Shown: piece by piece, positions 22,267 through 35,064 of the stretch
Position numbering within the stretch: position 1 is the stretch's first letter
Layout: each line of letters opens with the position of its first letter
Source: an uncultured bacterium
GTDB taxonomy: Bacteria; Armatimonadota; UBA5829
Direction of reading: 5' to 3'
Length of the DNA stretch: 64,000 nt
NCBI GenBank assembly: GCA_938074205.1
Contig: CALJES010000012.1
Location: 278,840 to 342,839, forward strand
The notes under the pieces: model-generated
Seen by the model: only the letters and a program-made list of their open reading frames with translations
Told to the model about the DNA's origin: nothing
The model's database searches: none
Program-made: the position numbers and the translations under genes

Positions 22267-25200
22267 ATGTTCAAACGGAATAAAGTGGCGAAGAAAATGG
22301 GTGCTCCAGCATTTTCCAATCAAGAAACGACAAGACGATTCATAGATAACTGTATCAGCGCATTGGAAGACGAAATCCAAGCCGCTGAACACACCGGAGG
22401 TTCCAAAAGGACAGTCGCACTAGCTAACGGACGCTTTCAAAGAACGATTGATCGAACTCATATATACGTGTTTGTAGCATCTGATGGCATGCCGCCGTCC
22501 TACGAAGATGCTCCTGTGCAAATATTGGTTTCAGGACAGGAGATAGACGGATCTGTTGTAGGCATAGAGGAGTTTGAGGTGATAATTGCTCTCGAAGAAT
22601 ACGTGGGAATGTACGTAGCTACAGCAGAACTCGTCGTCGACCTAACGTTCATACTTGAGAAGCTCAGAGAGCTTTTGACTGAGCGGGCCTCTGCTTTAGA
22701 GGTCCACGATGTAACCCTGAAAGTCTTTGGATTTGGTCAGCCACGTATCTCTTTAAGTTCTGCAAAACACCTTTCTGCTGACGAATGTTACATGAACGAA
22801 GCCCAGAAGCACGCATTGGGCAAGTGTCTAGGCAGCGACTTCGTAATGGTTTGGGGACCTCCCGGTACAGGAAAAACGCACGTTTTGGCGAGGGTTCTCG
22901 GCGAGCAGATTTTGCAAGGACAGTCCATTGCTCTACTCTCGAACACTAACATCGCTGTAGACCAAGCGCTTGAGCAGCTACTTAAACTCTGTGAAAATAA
23001 CGAAAGACTCAAGTGTTTGAAAGACGAAGGAAAGATAATACGCTTGGGCACACCTCAATTGGAAAGCGTCTTATCCATTACTCTCGATAGGATGGCTGAA
23101 CGCATAGCGTCCCAATTGAAAGACGAACTAACAAGGCTAAAGCGGCGCCGGGATAGACGAACTAAACGCTTGGAACAAGTGAGGTCGAGGATTAAAAGGC
23201 TTAGGGAATTGCTGGAGTTACATCGTAGACTCAATGAAGTAGTGGACTCGGAAAAACGCATTGCCCACGAGCTGAAAAAAGTGTGCCACCAATACCACGT
23301 GCTTGCAGACGAGCTTCTTGCGCTAAATTTGCGACTGTCCGTCATCCAAAAAAGGCGCCGCCTGCTACGCCTGATATACAGGTCCAAACAGCGCCGCTTG
23401 GAGCAGCTCGTGACTCAAAAAGAAGAGGGTTGCAGAAAAATAAACGAGAATATGCGTAAGTTAACCGAAAAAGTCTTGGCTCACCGCGCTGAGGTCGAAA
23501 AACTTCGCCAACGGATGGCCACCTTGACAAATGGCGTAGTCGATCCAGCGAAATGGGAAACCTGTCTGGCTCGGCTTACAAGTCTTGAGACGAGGCTACA
23601 AAATGAGATGGCCATCTTCGCAGCGAGAATCCACGAGCTTGAAATCGCTCTCCAGACAGTTGAAGCAAGAATTCTTAACGAGGCTCTCCTTGTAGGGTGT
23701 ACCTGCGCTAAGAGCACCCTCGACGTTAATGTCAGTAGCCGTAGGTTTTCAACGGTGGCTGTAGATGAATCCAGTATGGTCTCCCTTCCGCAAACACTCT
23801 GGTGTACGAACTTGGCTAATAAAAGGTTCCTTTGTTTTGGGGACTTTCGCCAGTTGCCACCGATCACCTTGATCAAACCAGATTCTGGGCAGGAGTCATA
23901 TGAGATCATGCATAGTAGCATATTCGAAAGACATCGGTTGGGCGAGAGTTTACAGGACGCCCTTGGGGATCCGCGGGTAGCTTTGCTAAATGAACAATAT
24001 CGTATGAATCCAGAAATATGTGAGCTCGTGAACAAATGGATGTATGGGGGCCGCTTGATTACGGTACCTGGGACCGGCTGCGGAGCTATGCTGTCCCAGG
24101 ATCCACCTCTTGCACTGGTTGACACGTCGTTATTTGGTGCATGGAGCGACAAGAACGCGGATTTTTCGTGGTACAATTGGCACCACGCATTTGTGGTGCT
24201 GGAACTCGTGCGAGAATTGAGAAATGATTCAGGTGCCCAGGCAGATCAAGGTGCGCTAGTGCTGATACTTACGCCGTACCGCGCTCAGGTTCGCCTAATT
24301 CGAGCATTGCTGGAAGAAGCAGACCTTCAAGAGAACGCGAGAGTATCAACCGTCTGGGGTTGCCAAGGAACAGAAGCAAGCGTTGTCATATTTGATACCG
24401 TGTGTGCCCCTCCGTACAGCAAACCGGGACGATGGTTTCTGCATGAACCGGGGCCAGCGGACGGTGCCAGGTTAATTAACGTCGCCATAACAAGAGCCAA
24501 GGACAAGTTGTATATAGTGGGGCATAGGCAGCACCTTGTGCGGAGCTGCCCATCAACCGCGTTCATAAGGAAAATTCTGGATTGCTTAATCGCAAATGAC
24601 CATATTATCGATTCACGGGAAATCGCGAAAAACTTGATACCGGAAGAACCAGCCGACGATGGTGGCTTTCCTATTGGCGCATTTGGGACTGCCTCGTTCA
24701 AGTTGTTCGACCAAGAGACGTTTCTAGAGGCGTTTATAAGCGATCTTTGTCAACTTCCGCCAGGATCGCGGATAACCATCTTCCGGCCGTTCTTAAGTGG
24801 GGAATCCTTTGCACGTTGCAAGTCGCATTTTTGCACATTGCTCAAAAATGGCTGCAGCATCGAGCTATTTACACGAGATCGCTCTGCGCAGAACAGGGGC
24901 AGGCCACTCGACGCTGTCGATTCTATGATTGATGAGCTGGAAAGATTGGGGGCAAAGGTTGGGATAGATTCGTATCTGCGGGGCCAAAGATTCGAGCACC
25001 ACAAGTTGGCTTTTCTCGAGTACCCGCAGGAATCAGACCGAAGAAGCGAACCTGTTATCTGGATCGACAGCAAAAGGATTCTTGGTCACCGCTCTGGTTG
25101 GGAGACTATGCTGCGAATTCAGTCGCGCAATGTGTACAGCGTCTTTGCGAGTATCATCGGTTTAGAAGACCGGCGCAAGCACGTACCAGTACACGTTTTG

Positions 25201-25521
25201 ATAAGCAAACTGGAGAACACACTTCAGCGACAGCTGCAAGCAATTTGTCCTGTTCACAAATTACACATGAAGCTTCGTTTCTCGGTTAGAAGTAGTAAAA
25301 AGTCATTTTTTATGTGTTGTCCTACGTGGAGCAAAAGCAGATGTGACCAGAAGATGAATGTGTCGGTTGAAGAGCTTAACAAAGCTCTGGAGTTCATTCG
25401 GGCGACGTGCTTGGAACCCGGCTGCGACGCTCCGTTGGATGCAAGACGAGGTCGTGAAGGCATATACATAAGGTGCTCCGAAGGACACTATGTCCCCCTT
25501 ATTTCATACTTCCGTAGATAA
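22267..25521 (+). CDS. Upf1-like (DNA2/NAM7) SF1 helicase with a roughly 250-aa coiled-coil insertion and a roughly 330-aa C-terminal region with an HxK motif and a Cys/His cluster.
   Basis: Helicase motifs are I 'GPPGTGKT', II 'VAVDESSMV', III 'GDFRQLPPI', IV 'LNEQYRMNPEI', V 'ILTPYRAQV' and 'VWGCQGTEASVVIFD', and VI 'INVAITRAKDKLYIVG'. A heptad-rich Arg/Leu/Glu segment sits between motifs I and II. The C-terminal region contains 'FEHHKLAFLEY' and 'CCPTWSKSRC...CLEPGC...CSEGH'. Confidence 0.7.
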   Translation: MFKRNKVAKKMGAPAFSNQETTRRFIDNCISALEDEIQAAEHTGGSKRTVALANGRFQRTIDRTHIYVFVASDGMPPSYEDAPVQILVSGQEIDGSVVGIEEFEVIIALEEYVGMYVATAELVVDLTFILEKLRELLTERASALEVHDVTLKVFGFGQPRISLSSAKHLSADECYMNEAQKHALGKCLGSDFVMVWGPPGTGKTHVLARVLGEQILQGQSIALLSNTNIAVDQALEQLLKLCENNERLKCLKDEGKIIRLGTPQLESVLSITLDRMAERIASQLKDELTRLKRRRDRRTKRLEQVRSRIKRLRELLELHRRLNEVVDSEKRIAHELKKVCHQYHVLADELLALNLRLSVIQKRRRLLRLIYRSKQRRLEQLVTQKEEGCRKINENMRKLTEKVLAHRAEVEKLRQRMATLTNGVVDPAKWETCLARLTSLETRLQNEMAIFAARIHELEIALQTVEARILNEALLVGCTCAKSTLDVNVSSRRFSTVAVDESSMVSLPQTLWCTNLANKRFLCFGDFRQLPPITLIKPDSGQESYEIMHSSIFERHRLGESLQDALGDPRVALLNEQYRMNPEICELVNKWMYGGRLITVPGTGCGAMLSQDPPLALVDTSLFGAWSDKNADFSWYNWHHAFVVLELVRELRNDSGAQADQGALVLILTPYRAQVRLIRALLEEADLQENARVSTVWGCQGTEASVVIFDTVCAPPYSKPGRWFLHEPGPADGARLINVAITRAKDKLYIVGHRQHLVRSCPSTAFIRKILDCLIANDHIIDSREIAKNLIPEEPADDGGFPIGAFGTASFKLFDQETFLEAFISDLCQLPPGSRITIFRPFLSGESFARCKSHFCTLLKNGCSIELFTRDRSAQNRGRPLDAVDSMIDELERLGAKVGIDSYLRGQRFEHHKLAFLEYPQESDRRSEPVIWIDSKRILGHRSGWETMLRIQSRNVYSVFASIIGLEDRRKHVPVHVLISKLENTLQRQLQAICPVHKLHMKLRFSVRSSKKSFFMCCPTWSKSRCDQKMNVSVEELNKALEFIRATCLEPGCDAPLDARRGREGIYIRCSEGHYVPLISYFRR

Positions 25522-25540: not shown

Positions 25541-27004
25541 TTACTCGGACGAATTCGCCAACAGCTCGCATATCTTGTTCTGCACAGCCGTTGCAGCGCT
25601 ATTTGGGCAAGGGTGGTTGTTCATCAGTATGGAGAATACCAGCGGTTCGCCGGACTTTGTTGTGAGGTAACCTGAGAGACTGCTTACTCTGCTTAAATAC
25701 CCCGTTTTTGCGCGAACGTTGTTCTCCGCAGACGTGCCCTTCATCCTATTCTTCAGAGTGCCGTCTACGCCGGCCAACGGTAGCGAATCTATGAACGCAC
25801 GGGCATGCGGATGACGATACATATGACTCAAAAGCTCAACCAAGCTCCTCGCGGTCACACAGTTCAGCCTGGAAAGACCCGACCCGTCGGCTATATAAAT
25901 GCCGCCGAGGTCAATGCCTATCTGAGTCATGAATTCCTTCTCGACTTCACGGCCGCACTCAGCTGAGCCCTTTCCCTTAACAAATGCGCCCAGCGTTTTT
26001 AGAAGAATCTCAGCTATGAGGTTGTCGCTGGGCTTGTTGAGAAGCTCGAGAATTTTCGATAACGGTGGGGAAACATGCTCGCACAGCAACGTTGCATCGC
26101 TCGGAATTTTGCCGCGTTTAACTTCACCCTCCACTACTATGCCCTGCTTGTGAAGTTCATTCTTAAACACGTGACCAGTGTAAAGAGCCGGCTCGTGAAT
26201 GGTAATAATCGCTTCCGAGGCAGTAACTTTCGTCCCCACAGGTATGCTACCGCCCGCTCGGATTATATTGGTGCCCAGAACCCTATAGACCCAGACGGTT
26301 TTCTGTGAATCGGTCTCTCCTGTTATCGGACAGCTCTCAATCTGCAAGAACGAGTTGACGGGATCCAGTTGCACGATTGCTGGATCCCCAGGTTTCTTGC
26401 CAGGGTAGACCCACACGTTTACGACGTTTCGGTTAAGGTTCAGCGCAGTTATCTCTGCTGAGTAGTAATAACACAGGTCGTTCCACGGCCAACCTGTTCC
26501 AAGCCGACAGTCATCAAATAGAGAATCGTCCACGATCAAATCACCCGTTACCTTCTTGATGCCCTGGGTTTTCAGTTTTTGGGCCATCTCCACCAGATCG
26601 TTGGTTTCCAGGGTCGGATCGCCGCCGCCCACTAACGCAATAGAACCCTTGACCAAACCGTGTGGGTTCACTGGCGCGCATGTAAACACCTTGGTGACGT
26701 ATGTAAAATCCGGCCCCAGGCGGTCAAGCGCGGCAGCAGAGACTAGGAGCTTCATATTTGAAGCCGGGATCATAGCCAGATCAGCATTCCGTTCATACAG
26801 GGTTTTGCCAGTCTGCAGAGATTTTACCAAGACTGCTTGGATGCCGTGATTTAGGTTCGGATCGGCGAGCATTTGATCGATCTGGTGATGCAGACTATTT
26901 GCTTGTGCATAAGTCGCAATCCAAACCGCGAGAATGCACCATAGGAGTACTAAGCGCGCCCTGCGATACGAGACTGCTGATAGTCTTCGATTGCTCCTGT
27001 TCAT
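25541..27004 (-). CDS. dacB: D-alanyl-D-alanine carboxypeptidase/endopeptidase (peptidase S13, PBP4/DacB).
   Basis: A signal peptide is followed by the S13 active-site region 'PASNMKLLVSAAAL' (SxxK). Confidence 0.8.
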   Translation of the reverse strand: MNRSNRRLSAVSYRRARLVLLWCILAVWIATYAQANSLHHQIDQMLADPNLNHGIQAVLVKSLQTGKTLYERNADLAMIPASNMKLLVSAAALDRLGPDFTYVTKVFTCAPVNPHGLVKGSIALVGGGDPTLETNDLVEMAQKLKTQGIKKVTGDLIVDDSLFDDCRLGTGWPWNDLCYYYSAEITALNLNRNVVNVWVYPGKKPGDPAIVQLDPVNSFLQIESCPITGETDSQKTVWVYRVLGTNIIRAGGSIPVGTKVTASEAIITIHEPALYTGHVFKNELHKQGIVVEGEVKRGKIPSDATLLCEHVSPPLSKILELLNKPSDNLIAEILLKTLGAFVKGKGSAECGREVEKEFMTQIGIDLGGIYIADGSGLSRLNCVTARSLVELLSHMYRHPHARAFIDSLPLAGVDGTLKNRMKGTSAENNVRAKTGYLSRVSSLSGYLTTKSGEPLVFSILMNNHPCPNSAATAVQNKICELLANSSE

Positions 27005-27526
27005 CTAGCTCAACTCCATTGGCTACTGCCGGTGTATACCATTCGCTTCGATACCATGCCTGTCCATAAGTTAGTGAAGCCGGTTTAGCCCGCTAGGCAT
27101 CGAACGATGCCGTGTGTGAAACGCTTATAGTAATATGGTCTGGAAAAACAGACGATTGCTACCTTGCTATTCACATTATACGCCAGCCTGGACAGCAAAA
27201 GCTGGCGCGAACACCGGATGTCGCAAAATTTATCTCATTCTCCTCACCTTCGAGCACCTTGGAAGCTATTGGAATGGCAGTCGGAGTAAACCACCGATGG
27301 TCATTTCAAAGTTTGATATCTACCGTTTACGGCTCAATGTGAAAGTTCTTATCCGCATCATCCAGGCGGCAAAGCGTATCCTGAGCTGACTCCAGTCCCT
27401 AGTGAATGCCAGGGTCAAGCTAAGGCGAACTCTTCCAGGTCATTGCTAAGTCCAGCGGACAGGTGTAGGGTGACTTTTCTTTTGTATAATGCGGTGCAAA
27501 TGCGCTGGATGCAGGATCAAAAACGC

Positions 27527-28099
27527 TCAGCTGCGTCGCTCTCTTACGGGCCCAAGGGATATGTCTATGTCATCAGTCAGAAGCTCAGAACCACTCTGTC
27601 GCGCCTGGATCTCACCGCGCCTAGAATCCTCAACTGTCAGCAGGATAGAGCGTGTTCCTAAAGGAAACGATTTTTGATTTCGGCGCGCCCAAGCCGCAGC
27701 ATCTTTGTTTACGGGGCTTGCCAAGTTGTAGCTTTTGTACTGGATCATATCGGCGATGTGAACAATGACATCTACCAAAGTAACACCAGGAGACCAGTAA
27801 TCGCCTATGCAGACGTAATCTCCTATGTTCGGGTGCCATATCGGGGTGCGCATCGTGCATCTTGGACCCTGCCTCGGGTAACCGGTCGACAGTACTATAT
27901 CCACAACGTGCTTCTCTGACACCACAGCTCTACTCGATGCCTCATCCCAAACAAGTCCCGTCAGCCTGTAAGTAACTCGGTAATACCAAGGCGGGTTACC
28001 CTGAATCGGTTCTACACACACAAACTCGTTGCCGGAAAGTTCCGATAAGATCTTTTCGTATTCGCGACGCAGACGCCTTGTCCGAATTGTCTCGCTCAC
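27527..28099 (-). CDS. Prokaryotic ubiquitin-conjugating enzyme (E2/UBC fold) homolog.
   Basis: The UBC signature is 'RLRREYEKI...YPRQGPRCTMRTPIWHPNIGDYVCIGDYWSPGVTL'. This gives the HPN motif, a candidate catalytic Cys 7 residues later, and WSP. Confidence 0.75.
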   Translation of the reverse strand: MSETIRTRRLRREYEKILSELSGNEFVCVEPIQGNPPWYYRVTYRLTGLVWDEASSRAVVSEKHVVDIVLSTGYPRQGPRCTMRTPIWHPNIGDYVCIGDYWSPGVTLVDVIVHIADMIQYKSYNLASPVNKDAAAWARRNQKSFPLGTRSILLTVEDSRRGEIQARQSGSELLTDDIDISLGPVRERRS

Positions 28100-28114
28100 G
28101 ATACCGCACCTGCC

Positions 28115-29536
28115 TCACTTTGGCTTTCCCAGACTTGCGCAGATACGCTTGACCTTCCGCCGGTCGCTTTCAGACAGCGCATGGAAAAGTCTGTCATACG
28201 GCTCTTCGCGACAGATCACTCCGTAAGCTATCTCCCGACTTCGTTCACCGCGTAGCCACCGAACAGCTTTCTCATGCCAAGCGTTCGAACCATGCTCGTC
28301 ATGAACAGCTACGCTTAGCTTCAGCGACCGCACAATGTCCCTTACGCGGCAGGCTCTCTCGATCCGCTTCTCACGGCTTGCAGCCGCCCGCTTGTAGACT
28401 TGGAGGGCTTGTTTAACGTAGTCCGGCGAGGCTACAATAATATCAGGTCGACGACTATTGGATGTGAATGAGCTTTCTATGTCTTTCACCAGCGACGGTT
28501 CCTGCGCCCGCGGTAGCTGCCGGGCGAGACGCGCCGCTGCAGCTAACTGCAAGTTGATTCTATCGAGCTTTTCACCCTCTTCGTTGCCAATTTCGCTATC
28601 GGACAGCGCCGCGCTTACACGCTGAAACTCCAAAAACGCTTGTCGGTTTTCCGGGTTAGCTGAAAGTTCGAGCCTAAGCAACCTCTCACCGCCTGTAAGA
28701 TCACCTATCGAAAGCATTTCAATAGCGGTTTCCAGGTACGTAGTAGGATGTGTTGCCTGCCTCCCGCGGAAAACGACAAGCCACAAAGCGATCTGCGAAG
28801 CCGCCAATAGTATAATTAGTGACCAGATAATCCCAGGAACTCTACCGACGTTAAGGCGATTATTCATTTGTGCTGGTCCTCTAGCCGTGACCGTGGAATG
28901 ATCTGACGTTGCAGATAGCTCCCTCATACATTCCCGCAGTGCTTCTTCATTGCTGCGTGGGGCGAATACATAGAATCCGGAAATGCGTACAAGAGACTCC
29001 TGCGACCACTCAAAAATAGCCCATTCGCCCAACTTGGAGTCGACAACCATCGCTATCTGGTAGGAATCAGCGAAGTAGTGCTGGTGAATGAATTCGTCTT
29101 CCTTGGAAAGAAACGCTCCTAGCCCTGGGTGGCTGTGATACCAACCAACGATTCTCTCGCGTGAGTACCGCTGGGCAAGCTGCGCGTGCACCTGCTCCCA
29201 AGCCTCGTGGGTGAAAGTGAGCGATATACCGGTGCTTTCGGCCATCTCTGCTCGGATAATGTCGTTGACCTGAATAAAGTAACCCCTGCCAAACTTGCAG
29301 AACTCGCCTACCAACACTCCGCCGAGCTCACGCTCCGGATCTGCGAGAAGATGTTCCCTAATTGCCCGGACAGCTTGTTCACTGATGAAAACGGGATACA
29401 AATCATCGGCCGGCTGACCGCACGCGCAAACTCTCATCGCCCTGTTTTCAAGTGGGCTCTTTCTTTTGACGGCAGATAAGCGAGTTGACCTGCCTAGCTC
29501 CAGTTGTATGTCGTCGTTCTCTTCTTCGCGCTGCAT
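28115..29536 (-). CDS. JAB/JAMM (MPN+) metallo-isopeptidase with a TM helix and a roughly 220-aa C-terminal extension.
   Basis: JAMM motifs are 'ELGGVLVGE', 'HSHP' and 'SKED'. The predicted TM is 'VPGIIWSLIILLAASQIALWLVVF'. Confidence 0.75.
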   Translation of the reverse strand: MQREEENDDIQLELGRSTRLSAVKRKSPLENRAMRVCACGQPADDLYPVFISEQAVRAIREHLLADPERELGGVLVGEFCKFGRGYFIQVNDIIRAEMAESTGISLTFTHEAWEQVHAQLAQRYSRERIVGWYHSHPGLGAFLSKEDEFIHQHYFADSYQIAMVVDSKLGEWAIFEWSQESLVRISGFYVFAPRSNEEALRECMRELSATSDHSTVTARGPAQMNNRLNVGRVPGIIWSLIILLAASQIALWLVVFRGRQATHPTTYLETAIEMLSIGDLTGGERLLRLELSANPENRQAFLEFQRVSAALSDSEIGNEEGEKLDRINLQLAAAARLARQLPRAQEPSLVKDIESSFTSNSRRPDIIVASPDYVKQALQVYKRAAASREKRIERACRVRDIVRSLKLSVAVHDEHGSNAWHEKAVRWLRGERSREIAYGVICREEPYDRLFHALSESDRRKVKRICASLGKPK

Positions 29537-29554
29537 ACTCTCGAATGTGTCGAT

Positions 29555-30061
29555 TCAGATCACAAGCCGGATCAAGAAGACGATCCCGCTTGAGCTGATA
29601 CTGAAGAGCACAACCGCTGGTCCAAAGCAGTTTTCGAAAAAGCGGTTTTCCCTAGCTGTGAAACGACAGTGCACACAAATGATCTGATTCTGCTTCACCG
29701 GTCTTCCGCACTTTATGCACCGCAGAGGCTGATCACTTTCGTCTGTCAGGTCTGTAGGCGCAATGACAATACGGCCCTCTGCAGTAGGCGAAATGCGATC
29801 AGAGATCTGCCGGTTCCATATTGCCCAACCGTCGCAGCCGTATACAGAGCAGCGGCCGTTGGACTTCCAGCACTCAGCATGATGCATTACGCCGCACTTG
29901 GGACAGCGTATCGCTTCTTCTTTCGATTCGATCGGACTTAGACAGTATGGGCAGTTCAGGCTTTCGTTTGTTGATCTCACCTTTCCACTCGATCGAACGC
30001 TTTGGGTAGTTGGTCTATGGTATCGAGGCTGCCGGTAGGAACCGCCGCCACTATCAGCCAA
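29555..30061 (-). CDS. Membrane-anchored C4HC3 RING-variant-like zinc-finger protein (paralog 2), with a second CxxC...CxxC ribbon and a C-terminal TM.
   Basis: Cys/His spacing is 'CPYC..(13)..CPKCGVMHHAECWKSNGRCSVYGC', then 'CIKCGRPVKQNQIICVHC', then the hydrophobic tail 'AVVLFSISSSGIVFLIRLVI'. The 5' end overlaps the upstream paralog by 85 nt, so the true start may be internal or non-ATG. Confidence 0.5.
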   Translation of the reverse strand: MADSGGGSYRQPRYHRPTTQSVRSSGKVRSTNESLNCPYCLSPIESKEEAIRCPKCGVMHHAECWKSNGRCSVYGCDGWAIWNRQISDRISPTAEGRIVIAPTDLTDESDQPLRCIKCGRPVKQNQIICVHCRFTARENRFFENCFGPAVVLFSISSSGIVFLIRLVI

Positions 30062-30459
30062 GCTAACAGAACTGCTGAGACGAGCAACATAATCAGTATA
30101 GGTCCCACGTTCTTTGCGTCCTGGTGTTCTAGGATAGATGTGGGCCTACACGTATTGCAGTAGAGTTCCCCTGGAGGAACCTGCTTCCCGCAGTGCACAC
30201 ACGGGTTGGAAACGCTCATCGCTTTTCTGTTACTTGCAGATTCGACTGCCTCACGCGTTAGAAGGAGTCTACTCCTTGCCGGTGGTGTATCGAAGTTGAT
30301 TTCGATTATCCGTCTTGCTTTGGGACATTCCTTTGCACAGCAGCCGCGGTGCTCTTCCCAACAATCGAAGTGATACACCGAGCCGCATGCGTCGCAGGTC
30401 ACAGTTTTTTCCTGCAGGGCAATTTCGCTCATACAATAGCGACAACTTCTGTCTGCCAC
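29977..30459 (-). CDS. Membrane-anchored C4HC3 RING-variant-like zinc-finger protein (paralog 1).
   Basis: Cys/His spacing is 'CRYC..(12)..CDACGSVYHFDCWEEHRGCCAKEC', then 'CVHCGKQVPPGELYCNTC', then the TM 'ILIMLLVSAVLLAWLIVAAV'. Confidence 0.55.
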   Translation of the reverse strand: MADRSCRYCMSEIALQEKTVTCDACGSVYHFDCWEEHRGCCAKECPKARRIIEINFDTPPARSRLLLTREAVESASNRKAMSVSNPCVHCGKQVPPGELYCNTCRPTSILEHQDAKNVGPILIMLLVSAVLLAWLIVAAVPTGSLDTIDQLPKAFDRVER

Positions 30460-30509
30460 TTCTGCTCACGTGTTAAAGTCGTTTGCTACGCGCCGCGCAA
30501 GCTATTCTC

Positions 30510-31721
30510 TTACGAACCCGGCAGTACGGATTTGGCATCTGATGATATCTCAATCTGCACGCAGCCTCTTTGCGATACCGCAGGAAGAATCTCCAATTGA
30601 CCAAAACCAAGCTCTTTTAGTGTGATATCTTCGTAGGGCGCGCCGCGCATATACTCGACATCTACTTCCGGCAGTCGCTCTGCGCCGCAGTCGGGACATC
30701 TTGCCTCTTCAGCGCGGATGCTATGTGCCAATCGGTAGAACGGTTGCGTGGAGCCACACCGATTGCACTTAAGTGATTTTACCATCTCAGAAGGTAGACC
30801 AATCACAGGGTTTGCACCCACGTAACGTGTTGCGAGATCCGCAACCTCAGCCAGCGTTGCTGATTCGCTGTTGAGCTGGGTTTCTACGATGTTTTCGAAC
30901 AACTCGTGGCTCATGCAGTCTTCGTTTCTCACGTAGTCAATAATGAAGCAGTCGTAGGTTGTGGCGTCAAAGTAGAAAGCCTTCCCGACCAGGGTAGGGC
31001 TCAGCCTCTGTCCTGGCGTTTGCAGGCAGGAGCGCGAGTGCAAGAGCTTTACGGCTTCGTGTACCTGGATGCCGGCTATTATGGATGCCATTGTAGGCGT
31101 CGTAGGAGTCCTGTCTTGAATATGAGCTTGAGCTGCCAGGATACCGCACGACTCACGCCACGCCATAATTTTTCTGTCCTGTTCGCCGAGCGTACACTCG
31201 TAGCAAGGGGTATCTGGGGGCACGAAGCTGCGCACAATACCGCGAGTGTCATCGACCGCTCCATCTACCCAGGGTGTGCCAACCTTCCAGCAAGCTCGGT
31301 TGATTGCAAGCCGCGCCTCACGGTTATCCAGTCCGCCGATCACGACATCCACGCGCCTGAAAATGCCAAGACCGATGTCCCTAGTTACATCAGCCTCCAG
31401 GCCGATGAACCGGCAGTCAGGATTCAGCGCCTCAGCTGCGCTCGCCGCTACTTGGGCTTTGGGCTTGCCTTCGTCTTGGGCTCTGAATAATGGACTTCGC
31501 GAAAGGTTGGAGAGCTCAACACGATCGAAGTCGACTATGATCACCGTCCCTGCGCCCAATAGTGCAAGGTTCTTTATTATCTCATTGCCAAGCGCACCGG
31601 CTCCAACGACCATGATTGATGCGGCGCGTAGGACGTCTTGGTTCCACCAGGAGATCAAGCGTAAACGCCAATATCGATCTTCTCCGATGTCAATCGGGAA
31701 GTGGGATTTCTCAGCAGACAC
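30510..31721 (-). CDS. E1-like adenylating enzyme (ThiF/MoeB/UBA family) with a C-terminal zinc-ribbon extension.
   Basis: The nucleotide-binding motif is 'VVGAGALGNEIIKNLALLGAGTVIIVDFDRVELSNLSRS'. CxxC is 'CYEC', and a later ribbon reads 'CNRCG...CPDCG'. The gene overlaps the Ubl gene by 11 nt. Confidence 0.8.
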   Translation of the reverse strand: MSAEKSHFPIDIGEDRYWRLRLISWWNQDVLRAASIMVVGAGALGNEIIKNLALLGAGTVIIVDFDRVELSNLSRSPLFRAQDEGKPKAQVAASAAEALNPDCRFIGLEADVTRDIGLGIFRRVDVVIGGLDNREARLAINRACWKVGTPWVDGAVDDTRGIVRSFVPPDTPCYECTLGEQDRKIMAWRESCGILAAQAHIQDRTPTTPTMASIIAGIQVHEAVKLLHSRSCLQTPGQRLSPTLVGKAFYFDATTYDCFIIDYVRNEDCMSHELFENIVETQLNSESATLAEVADLATRYVGANPVIGLPSEMVKSLKCNRCGSTQPFYRLAHSIRAEEARCPDCGAERLPEVDVEYMRGAPYEDITLKELGFGQLEILPAVSQRGCVQIEISSDAKSVLPGS

Positions 31722-31998
31722 AAAAGCACCCGCCTGCGGTGATCTCAGGTATTAGTCTGAGAACGTCCCCGTCTAGGACGTTGCATTCTGAAAGCGTGAG
31801 ATTGTCCAGCAAATGCCTGCCGGTTCCTTTGTGCAGGAGTTTGTAAGAAATCGGCGCGCCTGCGGTGTTGACCACTGGTAGGTAAAGAACCTCGACTAGT
31901 TTGTCAATAATTCTACTGATAGGCACGTCGTCTGGGAGCGTCGCATCTTGTTCTTTGCTTCCCGTTACGTCTATGATTGTGACGTTAACCTTACCCAT
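31711..31998 (-). CDS. Ubiquitin-like beta-grasp protein (95 aa) ending in ...AGG followed by a CFCVC tail.
   Basis: The beta-grasp pattern is 'KVNVTIIDVTGSKEQDATLPDDVPISRIIDKLVEVL...GDVLRLIPEITAGG'. A penultimate diglycine precedes a 5-residue Cys-rich extension. It is the first gene of the operon and overlaps E1. Confidence 0.6.
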   Translation of the reverse strand: MGKVNVTIIDVTGSKEQDATLPDDVPISRIIDKLVEVLYLPVVNTAGAPISYKLLHKGTGRHLLDNLTLSECNVLDGDVLRLIPEITAGGCFCVC

Positions 31999-32171
31999 TG
32001 GTGTTCACATTCCAATTCGGTTAATATTTCAGACGTTACATCGAGCAGAGTTGCCGAGATCTTGGCGTCCGCGTATTCGCCGCACCGCGGAAACCTTCCC
32101 TGCTGTATTATACCTCATTCCGTTAGTAAGATTCTTGGCGAATCAACAGGGAAGGGATGTTTTGCAGTACG

Positions 32172-32200
32172 TTGACAACCGTAAAACCTGATGTTATTCT
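32172..32200 (+). promoter_or_regulatory. Candidate sigma70 promoter (TTGACA-N17-TATTCT) for the GAF-PP2C gene, followed by a GC hairpin in the 5'UTR.
   Basis: I read ttgaca at 32172-32177 and tattct at 32195-32200. The hairpin CCTCGCGC...GCGCGAGG lies at 32201-32234. Confidence 0.3.
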
Positions 32201-32248
32201 CCTCGCGCTGCTGGTCTGAGTCGCGGCGCGAGGCAGCAAAAGAAGAAC

Positions 32249-34537
32249 ATGGAGAAACAGTCAATGCTCAAGGGAGTAGCACGCGCGGATGGGAGTGATT
32301 TCCCTGAAGACAGATACACTGCTATAGTGGCGCTATCGCATCTTTCTGAGAGGTTGGCTTCCGTAGAGTCGAAAAAGGCTTTCGTCATAGCTGCAGAAAC
32401 GGCCGCCACCTTGCTCCGAATGTCTTCTGTGCTCATATTTACAAAGGAAACCGACGGCCGGCTTGAGCTCCAGGCAGTGTATGCTGATTCGGCATCTGAA
32501 GAACTGGTCAGCGCATCGGGCAAAATAGCTCAGGAAGCGCTGAGTGTCAGCTCGCCGCTTTTGATTCCCAACACCGCGGCAACATCTTCTACTGCCGCGA
32601 AAATTATCCAGCGCAACGGGGTAGCGTCCTTGATATGTGTGCCAATGAGAATCGGCGGAACGGCATTGGGGGCGATCGTATGCCTTTCCGAGCAGGTCCG
32701 CAGTTTTTCACCGAGAGACATCGAACTCTTACACGTGATCGCATCTCATGCTGCCATAGCGGCGATGCGAACGAGAGCAGGCACCGAACGGCAGACACTA
32801 CCCAGCAGCGATGATCTTCTGGCGCTTGCGGACAGAAAGATTCGAGAGCTCTCGCTTCTCAACCAAATAAGCGAGGCAATGAACTCCACGTTGGAGCTCG
32901 ATGCGGTGCTCGACATCGCTTTGGAAGAATGCCTCGCGGCGATAGACGCCGACGCCGGCTCGCTGATGTTGATAAACGAGGATACGGGCAAGCTTGAGAT
33001 CGCGGCGTCGCGTGGTCTGCCGGAGGAACTGGTCGAGTCTACCTCGCAGGAGATCGGGCAGAGTATTGCCGGCTGGGTGGCTGAGCACGGTGAGAGCGTT
33101 CTCGTTACGGACGCACGCAATGACGACCGTTTTGAGATGCCATTCTATCGCGATGCCATCACTTCGTCCGCCTCGGTGCCGCTGAAGTCCAGAAACGGCT
33201 GCATTGGCGTGCTCAACGTTAACACTACGCGGCCTGATCGGATCTTCGACGAACGCGACCTCCAGTTTCTACAGACTATAGCAAACCAAATGGCTGCTGC
33301 TATCCAGAACGCCAGACTCTACACGCGCGTTCGCCGACGAACCCAACAACTCGACGGCTTGCTGAGGGTTTCGCGCAGCGTGACCTCCACGCTGAGCTTG
33401 GAAGATCGCTTGAAGCTCTTGAGCGAGGAAATGTGTAAGCTGCTGGAGTTTGATGTCTGCGTGATATTCCTAGTGGACGAAATTACAGGCAGGCTGCGGC
33501 ACGGAGTCGGCAGAGGGCTGAGAACGCGCTACAGATTCACCTACTATAACTTAGCAAATCCTCTGGCCCAGAAGGTTCTCAAAACGCGCAGAACGGTGTA
33601 TTTGAAGGATATCAATTCTTCGCCCACTGCGGCAAGCGATGTGTCGAAATCGGAGCGATTGACGTGTGCATTGGGACTGCCGCTGAGGAGCAATGGGAGG
33701 ATAGTAGCTGTTGCAACGCTTTTCGCTCGGGCTCCGCAAGAGCTACCACCGTCCAGACGTGCAGCATTGAAAATGCTAGCCGACTTGGCGGGCGTTGCCA
33801 TACACAACGCTTTGGCATATCAAAATAAGTATAGAGTGGCTTCATTGGTTCAAAGCAGGTTGGTACCCGCCGACGCCCCGACGGTTGACGGGCTCGAGAT
33901 AGGGCATAAGTTCTTCTCGGTGCGCGAGGTGGGCGGCGATTACTACGATTTCATTGTGCTTAATGATCGGCAGATCGGGATTGTAGTCGCCGATGTTTCG
34001 GGAAGCGATGTAGAAGCTGCCGAACACACCGCCATGAGCAGGCATGTTATACGTGCCTACGCACGGGAGTTTCCGCGTCCCGCTGATGTGCTCTATAAGA
34101 CGAACAACGTTATTTGCGAACTGACAAGTGCCGAGACGTTCGTAAGTGCATTCTACTGTGTAATCGACTTGGGTCGCGAGTGCTTCACGCACGCCAACGC
34201 CGGCTGTGAACCCCCGCTTCTCTACTGCGCAGCTCACGGAAACGTTCGGGACCTGCACACAAGCGGTGTTCTGCTCGGAGTAGCTGCAGGAATGCAATAC
34301 GCGGAGCAAGAGGTGTCCTTCAGATCTAAAGACGTTCTTGTCGCGTTCACCGACGGTGTAACTGAAGCATCCTGTGGTAATTCTCGTTTTGGAACGGACG
34401 CAGTGAAGCGCGTATTGTCGGCTAACGCTCATCTGGGTGCCCAGGCGATCGCGGACAAGCTCTTCGACGCTATTATGGAGTTTACCAACGGCAAGGTTTC
34501 CGATGACGTAGCGGTAGTCGTGGCAAAACGAGTGTAG
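32249..34537 (+). CDS. Multi-GAF-domain PP2C-type serine phosphatase (SpoIIE/RsbU family).
   Basis: The 762-aa product has 3 or more GAF-like segments. The C-terminal PP2C/SpoIIE domain carries 'GGDYYDF', 'VADVSG' and 'FTDGVTEA'. Confidence 0.75.
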   Translation: MEKQSMLKGVARADGSDFPEDRYTAIVALSHLSERLASVESKKAFVIAAETAATLLRMSSVLIFTKETDGRLELQAVYADSASEELVSASGKIAQEALSVSSPLLIPNTAATSSTAAKIIQRNGVASLICVPMRIGGTALGAIVCLSEQVRSFSPRDIELLHVIASHAAIAAMRTRAGTERQTLPSSDDLLALADRKIRELSLLNQISEAMNSTLELDAVLDIALEECLAAIDADAGSLMLINEDTGKLEIAASRGLPEELVESTSQEIGQSIAGWVAEHGESVLVTDARNDDRFEMPFYRDAITSSASVPLKSRNGCIGVLNVNTTRPDRIFDERDLQFLQTIANQMAAAIQNARLYTRVRRRTQQLDGLLRVSRSVTSTLSLEDRLKLLSEEMCKLLEFDVCVIFLVDEITGRLRHGVGRGLRTRYRFTYYNLANPLAQKVLKTRRTVYLKDINSSPTAASDVSKSERLTCALGLPLRSNGRIVAVATLFARAPQELPPSRRAALKMLADLAGVAIHNALAYQNKYRVASLVQSRLVPADAPTVDGLEIGHKFFSVREVGGDYYDFIVLNDRQIGIVVADVSGSDVEAAEHTAMSRHVIRAYAREFPRPADVLYKTNNVICELTSAETFVSAFYCVIDLGRECFTHANAGCEPPLLYCAAHGNVRDLHTSGVLLGVAAGMQYAEQEVSFRSKDVLVAFTDGVTEASCGNSRFGTDAVKRVLSANAHLGAQAIADKLFDAIMEFTNGKVSDDVAVVVAKRV

Positions 34538-34659: not shown

Positions 34660-35064
34660 TTGAGGCAAGGTGAGAGTATTCATTTGGAAATTCCCAGCTC
34701 ACCGGAGTACGTTGCTGTTGTCAGACGCGCTATTGAGGGAATCGCACAAAGAATGCATTTCAACGCAGCTCAGATTGAAGACTTGAAGGTAGCTGTAGGC
34801 GAAGCCTGCGCAAACGCGATTCTGCATGGGTGTCCGCGGTCTGAAGAAAACAATGTAGAAGTGCATTGTGAAGTACGCGCTGACGGTTTGCTTGTCGAAG
34901 TGAGAAACACCGTGGAAGGTCAATGCCGTCCGCACATACCAGCAAAGCCCGAGTTAAACCGCGAAGGAGGGCTGGGGCTCTATATCATTAACCAGCTTAT
35001 GGATGAAGTGCAGTTCACCTGGACCAACAGGACCGCAGTGCTACGTATGCTCAAGCGCCTGTGA
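34660..35064 (+). CDS. Anti-sigma regulatory factor/serine-protein kinase (RsbW/SpoIIAB-like, GHKL ATPase).
   Basis: The 134-aa HATPase_c domain has 'VGEACANAILHG' (N-box) and 'GGLGLYII' (G-box). Confidence 0.7.
   Translation: MRQGESIHLEIPSSPEYVAVVRRAIEGIAQRMHFNAAQIEDLKVAVGEACANAILHGCPRSEENNVEVHCEVRADGLLVEVRNTVEGQCRPHIPAKPELNREGGLGLYIINQLMDEVQFTWTNRTAVLRMLKRL

Follow-up and report, generated by a model that had tools for sequence, protein, structure and literature searches.

A small ubiquitin-like protein (Ubl) is encoded in a 64,000-nucleotide (nt) stretch of DNA (the window) on contig CALJES010000012.1, which derives from an uncultured bacterium of the Armatimonadota. The corresponding open reading frame (ORF; 31711..31998, minus strand) starts with ATG and yields a 95-aa product with the end PEITAGGCFCVC / LRLIPEITAGGCFCVC, followed by the stop codon TGA. 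Residues 89 and 90 are Gly-Gly, and cysteines occupy positions 91, 93 and 95, that is three of the last five residues. Alignment of homologues and comparison of codons delimit a conserved core, residues 1-89 (31732..31998, minus strand), which closes with P84-E85-x-T87-A88-G89. The remaining six residues, GCFCVC (90-95; 31714..31731, minus strand), form an unconserved tail, which homologue comparison, the confidence of an AlphaFold2 (AF2) model and the codon comparison mark as a putative disposable propeptide.

The Ubl gene is the first of a co-directional cluster, in which an activating enzyme (E1), two Prok-RING_1 proteins, a JAB peptidase and a conjugating enzyme (E2) are encoded, all of them with Pfam matches above the cut-offs and all on the minus strand. 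The E1-like enzyme (403 aa; 30510..31721; ThiF, 1.2e-53) has the canonical eukaryotic E1s UBA7, UBA1, SAE2 and UBA3 as its best solved relatives. Its Cys192, located just past the C173/C176/C269/H272 site, is invariant. Both RING finger proteins match Prok-RING_1 and have a C-terminal hydrophobic helix, at residues 115-145 in RING a (29977..30459; 3.1e-07, above cut-off) and at residues 145-168 in RING b (29555..30061; 2.9e-09); RING a contains a zinc ribbon and RING b a double one. The Rpn11-like JAB/JAMM peptidase (473 aa; 28115..29536; Prok-JAB and JAB) carries a hydrophobic helix at residues 233-258 and a long C-terminal region, and is most closely related, among solved structures, to Rpn11 and the Rpn11-like enzyme of Caldiarchaeum. 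Its JAMM site (E70, H134, H136, S144 and D147) is invariant or nearly so (0.98-1.00). The E2-like enzyme (190 aa; 27527..28099; UQ_con, 1.8e-10) can be aligned with canonical E2s across both the HPN motif and the catalytic cysteine, and H89-P90-N91 and C97 are invariant (60 sequences). Conservation of the catalytic residues of E1, E2 and JAB was read from alignments of 60-76 homologues from related loci. One strongly hydrophobic helix is found in each RING protein and in JAB. Judged by its sequences, the cassette is predicted to be complete, catalytically competent and membrane-associated, and of the ubiquitination type. The listed ORFs of RING a and RING b overlap by 85 nt (29977..30061, minus strand), and the true start of RING b probably lies downstream of the listed TTG. 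A scan of 27000..32400 for promoters and terminators returned sites no more numerous than in shuffled sequence.

Sequence and structure comparisons assign the Ubl to the beta-grasp fold. It matches the Pfam family PF08817 (YukD) with an E-value of 3.8e-14 (53.6 bits, cut-off 27), and its AF2 model, built from 41 homologues, is a confident beta-grasp with the topology b-b-a-b-b-b (predicted local distance difference test, pLDDT, 84). Confidence drops along the last residues; residues 93-95 have a pLDDT below 50 and the tail is disordered in the model. Foldseek returned SUMO, Caldiarchaeum ubiquitin, NEDD8 and ubiquitin as top matches (E about 1e-6), and the Ubl also weakly matches the ubiquitin-like domain of EccD. 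In Pfam, no match to ThiS was obtained at E <= 0.1 and none to the ThiS/MoaD families, and no sulfur-transfer genes were present near the operon among the ORFs of the window searched against Pfam. A sulfur carrier of the ThiS/MoaD type is not supported, given the missing family match, the Ala-Gly end and the presence of E2 and RING. Searches of PADLOC and NCBIfam were uninformative for the Ubl, the RING proteins and E2. Several statements of a preliminary description of this DNA hold: the Gly-Gly and the three-cysteine tail are present in the ORF product, and the product is ubiquitin-like. The neighbouring JAB that it named is catalytically intact, Rpn11-like and accompanied by E1, E2 and RING.

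The Ubl belongs to a widespread family. Relatives are encoded in at least 564 genomes in a scan of one genome per species, and those among the matches listed include Armatimonadota, Clostridia, Syntrophomonadaceae, Ignavibacteria, Bacteroidota and WS1. We compared 84 loci; the species scan kept 80 genome loci. E1 follows the Ubl directly in almost all of the 84, and all six parts were detectable in 43. Across the 80 genome loci the linkage of Ubl and E1 is strictly conserved, usually together with E2, JAB and RING. The full set of Ubl, E1, E2, RING and JAB is also present in the nearest orthologous locus, from a different Armatimonadota metagenome-assembled genome (MAG; L001), and in a further locus, L002. 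The second RING of L001 is not called as a gene, yet it was found by tblastn.

Conservation of the family stops at Gly89. The alignment is invariant or nearly so through Pro84-Glu85-Ile-Thr87-Ala88-Gly89, with Gly89 itself invariant in 41/41 aligned sequences, and past this residue there is no conservation. The protein ends exactly at Gly89 in 38 of 141 distinct homologues. The next position (+1) holds Gly in 49, Ala in 25, Arg in 7 and Ser in 6, the rest having N, K, C, Y, L, E, T, V or I; a residue other than Gly is thus found in 54. Tails range from 0 to 167 residues in length and are mostly of 1-6. The composition of 90 short tails is near-random: cysteine makes up 3.7% of their residues, compared with 3.3% for random codons (2/61 sense codons), and only two of the 90 contain two or more cysteines. 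A conserved terminal cysteine motif of the CXC/CaaX lipidation type was not found in the homologues, and the CVC of the window is absent from all but the window and L001, in both of which this DNA overlaps the start of E1. The L001 Ubl is 89% identical, lies in the same operon next to an E1 of 75% identity, and has the end PEITAGESFRVC (AGESFRVC). It lacks the Gly-Gly, with Glu at position 90, Ser in place of Cys91 and Arg in place of Cys93. In L002 the Ubl has no tail at all and JAB is still in the operon.

At six Clostridia loci, a PEITAG-containing Ubl is fused straight after Ala-Gly to a protein of 107-167 aa, which has a zinc ribbon (CxxC...CxxC) and, at its C-terminus, transmembrane helices. 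The first base past the Gly89 codon lies at position 2996 in L041, 3839 in L051, 7267 in L054, L065 and L081, and 3612 in L083. Such a fusion resembles a natural ubiquitin-fusion-type precursor and, as such, would need cutting after Gly89.

The 3' end of the Ubl gene overlaps the start of the E1 gene by 11 nt (31711..31721, minus strand), as read from the codons and the comparison with L001. E1 starts with a GTG at 31721..31719; no other in-frame start precedes the conserved EDRY motif of E1, and this GTG is the only usable one. It falls within the Ubl codons tGT GTC, and the Ubl stop is located 8 nt inside E1. Cys93-Val94-Cys95-stop (tGT GTC TGC TGA) therefore arises when the E1 start, GTG TCT GCT GAg, is read in another frame, and the overlap fixes Val94, Cys95 and the stop, together with two bases out of three in the Cys93 codon. 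The tail would thus owe its existence to a Ubl stop codon lying inside the overlapping E1 gene, and would represent the E1 start and the stretch directly before it, translated out of frame. As default megablast gave no match, the window and L001 were compared codon by codon. The tail reads GGG TGC TTT TGT GTC TGC TGA in the window and GAG TCG TTT CGT GTC TGC TGA in L001. The part that overlaps E1 is identical, whereas the free part differs in 4 of 12 bases, changing three of four codons, all of them non-synonymously (0 synonymous). In the 89-codon core, 35 codon differences are synonymous and 7 non-synonymous (core versus free tail, one-sided Fisher p about 0.008, our own arithmetic). The tail is under relaxed constraint.

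The junction between Ubl and E1 is tight in most loci of the family, the E1 start usually lying about 5-20 nt past the Gly89 codon. A Shine-Dalgarno-like GGNGG falls on the codons for Gly89 and the +1 residue, for example in the stretch GGC GGT GAA AAC TGATGG, and in the window GCA GGC GGG is found 7 nt upstream of the E1 GTG. This block, serving E1, would give a non-protein reason for the frequency of Gly at +1. A programmed frameshift into E1 was also considered and set aside: the Ubl ORF of L001 stops at the same position and overlaps the E1 GTG in the same way, and in most homologues the Ubl stop lies before, or overlaps, a normal E1 start codon.

Taken together, we consider it likely that the ORF encodes the precursor of a protein modifier in a bacterial E1-E2-RING-JAB operon, of which residues 1-89 with the end Ala88-Gly89 are functional and residues 90-95 are lineage-specific and unselected. 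The reactive C-terminus is most likely Ala-Gly89, since conservation stops at this glycine, many homologues end there and L001 continues with Glu. With an intact JAB and E1, E2 and RING proteins encoded beside the Ubl, removal of a propeptide by JAB is the natural reading, and GCFCVC is probably a disposable propeptide of this kind, by analogy with characterized systems. In the cascade envisaged, the 95-aa pro-Ubl would not be adenylatable, as for Caldiarchaeum pro-ubiquitin. The membrane-anchored, Rpn11-like JAB would cut the Gly89-Gly90 bond, both the cleavage and its exact site being predicted, and release GCFCVC. The Gly89 carboxylate may then be adenylated by E1, pass into a thioester on Cys192 and be handed to Cys97 of E2, and the two membrane-anchored RING proteins would direct transfer to lysines of target proteins. 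The same JAB may also deconjugate the Ubl and so reverse the modification.

Operons of this type are not new. Bacterial operons with ubiquitin, E1, E2, RING and JAB components were reportedly predicted by Burroughs, Iyer and Aravind in 2011, and the Pfam families Prok-RING_1 and Prok-JAB reportedly derive from that work. All components of the operon in the window match Pfam families of that set. The operon type is thus already known and the tail an ordinary lineage-specific extension, probably with the role of a propeptide. The predicted bacterial operons have been cited as rare and uncharacterised (PMC10557695). In the archaeon Caldiarchaeum subterraneum, CsRpn11 removes a 9-aa propeptide from the ubiquitin CsUb, and the pro-ubiquitin is refractory to E1 (PMC5654768, PMC6043591). 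This operon, whose RING is small, shares with the window a beta-grasp modifier, E1, E2, RING and an Rpn11-like JAB, and its precursor form ending in a short propeptide corresponds to what is proposed for the Ubl. The Ubl and JAB of the window have CsUb and CsRpn11 among their best structural or sequence matches. However, CsUb ends in Gly-Gly and the family studied here in Ala-Gly. Furthermore, JAB and both RING proteins of the window carry hydrophobic membrane helices, the host is a bacterium (Armatimonadota-like), and the Ubl falls into the Pfam family YukD and not into the ubiquitin family. The antiphage system Bil (BilABCD) is likewise composed of a bacterial Ubl, E1, E2 and JAB. BilC of Ensifer aridi cuts BilA between Gly97 and Ala98, and the exposed Ala-Gly end is conjugated to lysines (PMC10557695). 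Both this end and the processing logic match what we propose for the window; unlike the window, Bil has no RING proteins. In PADLOC, E1 matched BilD weakly (4.6e-10), the Ubl, E2 and the RING proteins had no match, and membership in Bil, Bub, CBASS or another catalogued defence system is not supported by this search.

Several points weigh against the proposed reading. Gly is the commonest residue at +1 (35%), and Gly and Ala together account for 72% of the residues that follow G89. Some selection may hence act there, whether through a preference of JAB for its P1' residue or because some lineages end in Gly-Gly. The Shine-Dalgarno account of this Gly is drawn from sequence patterns only. Retention of JAB in L002, where the Ubl has no tail, indicates that propeptide removal is not the sole role of this enzyme and perhaps not its main one. 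Finally, no experimental study of RING-containing bacterial Ubl operons was found in the literature searched.

Against this background, the alternatives were weighed. The preliminary description had taken Gly-Gly for the conjugatable motif, which JAB would expose by removing the tail. This holds in part, in that an extension follows a conserved glycine and an intact JAB adjoins; the conserved motif, however, is Ala-Gly89. A true di-glycine end at Gly89-Gly90 as in ubiquitin, with JAB removing only CFCVC, would suit the Gly-Gly of the window protein, the 49 homologues with Gly after G89 and the cleavage after Gly-Gly by archaeal CsRpn11 (PMC6043591). It is unlikely in view of the homologues that end at G89 or carry another residue, as among close relatives the +1 residue can be Glu, Ser, Ala or Cys, or be missing altogether. 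With Glu at this position in so close a relative as L001, closely related E1 enzymes would need to tolerate a one-residue difference in the C-terminus, and the codon of the +1 Gly falls on the Shine-Dalgarno-like block of E1. We regard it as very unlikely that the Ubl is a non-conjugated adaptor of the YukD/EsaB type whose C-terminus is irrelevant. The Pfam YukD match above cut-off, the weak EccD match and the NCBI name 'EsaB/YukD family protein' point that way, and the Ubl shares both its family, PF08817, and the beta-grasp fold with this type VIIb secretion protein. YukD, however, is reportedly not conjugated, and its gene belongs to ESAT-6 secretion clusters (PMC1779556), a context different from the invariant Ala-Gly end and the strict linkage to E1, usually with E2, JAB and RING, seen here. 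Type VII secretion genes are missing from the neighbourhood: neither EssC/FtsK-type ATPase nor WXG100 genes were found among ORFs within about 8 kb or in syntenic loci. Public records name homologues 'EsaB/YukD family protein' or 'uncharacterized ubiquitin-like protein YukD' (P0001, P0026, P0071 and others), and these Ubls sit in E1/E2/RING/JAB operons, not in type VII secretion loci.

A function of the cysteine-rich tail itself, be it as metal-binding or redox sensor, as lipidation site or in sulfur or cyclisation chemistry, appears highly improbable. Three cysteines in five residues with a terminal C-x-C could be read in its favour. The CVC resembles a CXC motif of the Rab type, and, JAB and the RING partners being membrane-anchored, a lipid anchor would make topological sense. 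But the cysteines are not conserved even in L001, tails with two or more of them are as rare as stated above, and the Cys95 codon lies wholly, the Cys93 codon by two of three bases, within the E1 overlap. No ThiS/MoaD match or nearby sulfur-transfer gene accompanies the Ubl, and E2 and RING argue for conjugation. The three-cysteine tail, earlier described as unusual, contains no more cysteine than chance and the overlap constraint give, and the suggested metal binding, lipidation, thiocarboxylate or cyclisation finds no conserved tail sequence, length or cysteine content to rest on. Homologues stopping at the glycine and lacking a conserved tail had been named beforehand as a refutation of the earlier reading, and this is essentially what the family looks like. 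A variant, in which the cysteine tail was co-opted in this lineage as a safety catch, with metal, redox state or S-acylation holding inactive pro-Ubl at the membrane by JAB and RING until cleavage by JAB gates the cascade under stress, strikes us as far-fetched. Least of all do we credit an artefact, that is, a sequencing or assembly error with the real stop earlier or later, for which the odd ending is the sole point in favour. The separately assembled Logan contig L085 (161 kb), probably from the same organism as the window, is 100% identical over 6288 nt, and L001 has a Ubl ORF of equal length with the same E1 overlap. The Ubl stop is hence no assembly error, and an earlier true stop, which had been envisaged, is contradicted.

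The surroundings of the operon were also inspected. Divergent from the Ubl gene lie genes for a triple-GAF SpoIIE/PP2C phosphatase (32249..34537, plus strand) and then for a small HATPase_c_2 protein (34660..35064, plus strand). The two resemble a partner-switching regulatory pair and are kept beside the operon in L001, L085 and L086. A syntenic Armatimonadota relative (L086/L087, 7001..7961) has the same argF/argG/argH, HATPase_c_2 and GAF-SpoIIE flanks and a decayed operon, consisting of a 101-aa chimera of the N-terminal half of the Ubl with the apparent C-terminal zinc ribbon of E1, and one RING remnant; JAB and E2 are lost. The cassette thus looks dispensable. About 2 kb beyond E2, with one 487-aa ORF (25541..27004) between, lies the gene for a 1084-aa superfamily-1 helicase (AAA_11/AAA_12; 22267..25521, plus strand), which matches Mokosh MkoA (2.2e-61) and MkoC (4.3e-32) in PADLOC. 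In a Ruminiclostridium MAG (L059, 8472..13453), E2 is 612 aa long and contains a membrane region of several helices and, by sequence motifs only, an FHA-like C-terminus. Next to it follow, again as assigned by motifs, a trypsin-like serine protease with a membrane anchor, a JAB with a transmembrane helix, a RING protein with transmembrane helices and a second JAB.

With regard to the family as a whole, the tail itself is of little import, being one more variable propeptide on a ubiquitin-like modifier. Of greater consequence is that a large bacterial Ubl family, with more than 560 species representatives, most likely has an Ala-Gly and not a Gly-Gly end, so that constructs for biochemistry should stop at Gly89. 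The Clostridia fusions of Ubl, zinc ribbon and membrane helices would provide ready natural substrates for tests of JAB processing. Moreover, the label 'EsaB/YukD family' appears to hide modifiers that belong to complete, membrane-associated E1-E2-RING-JAB operons.

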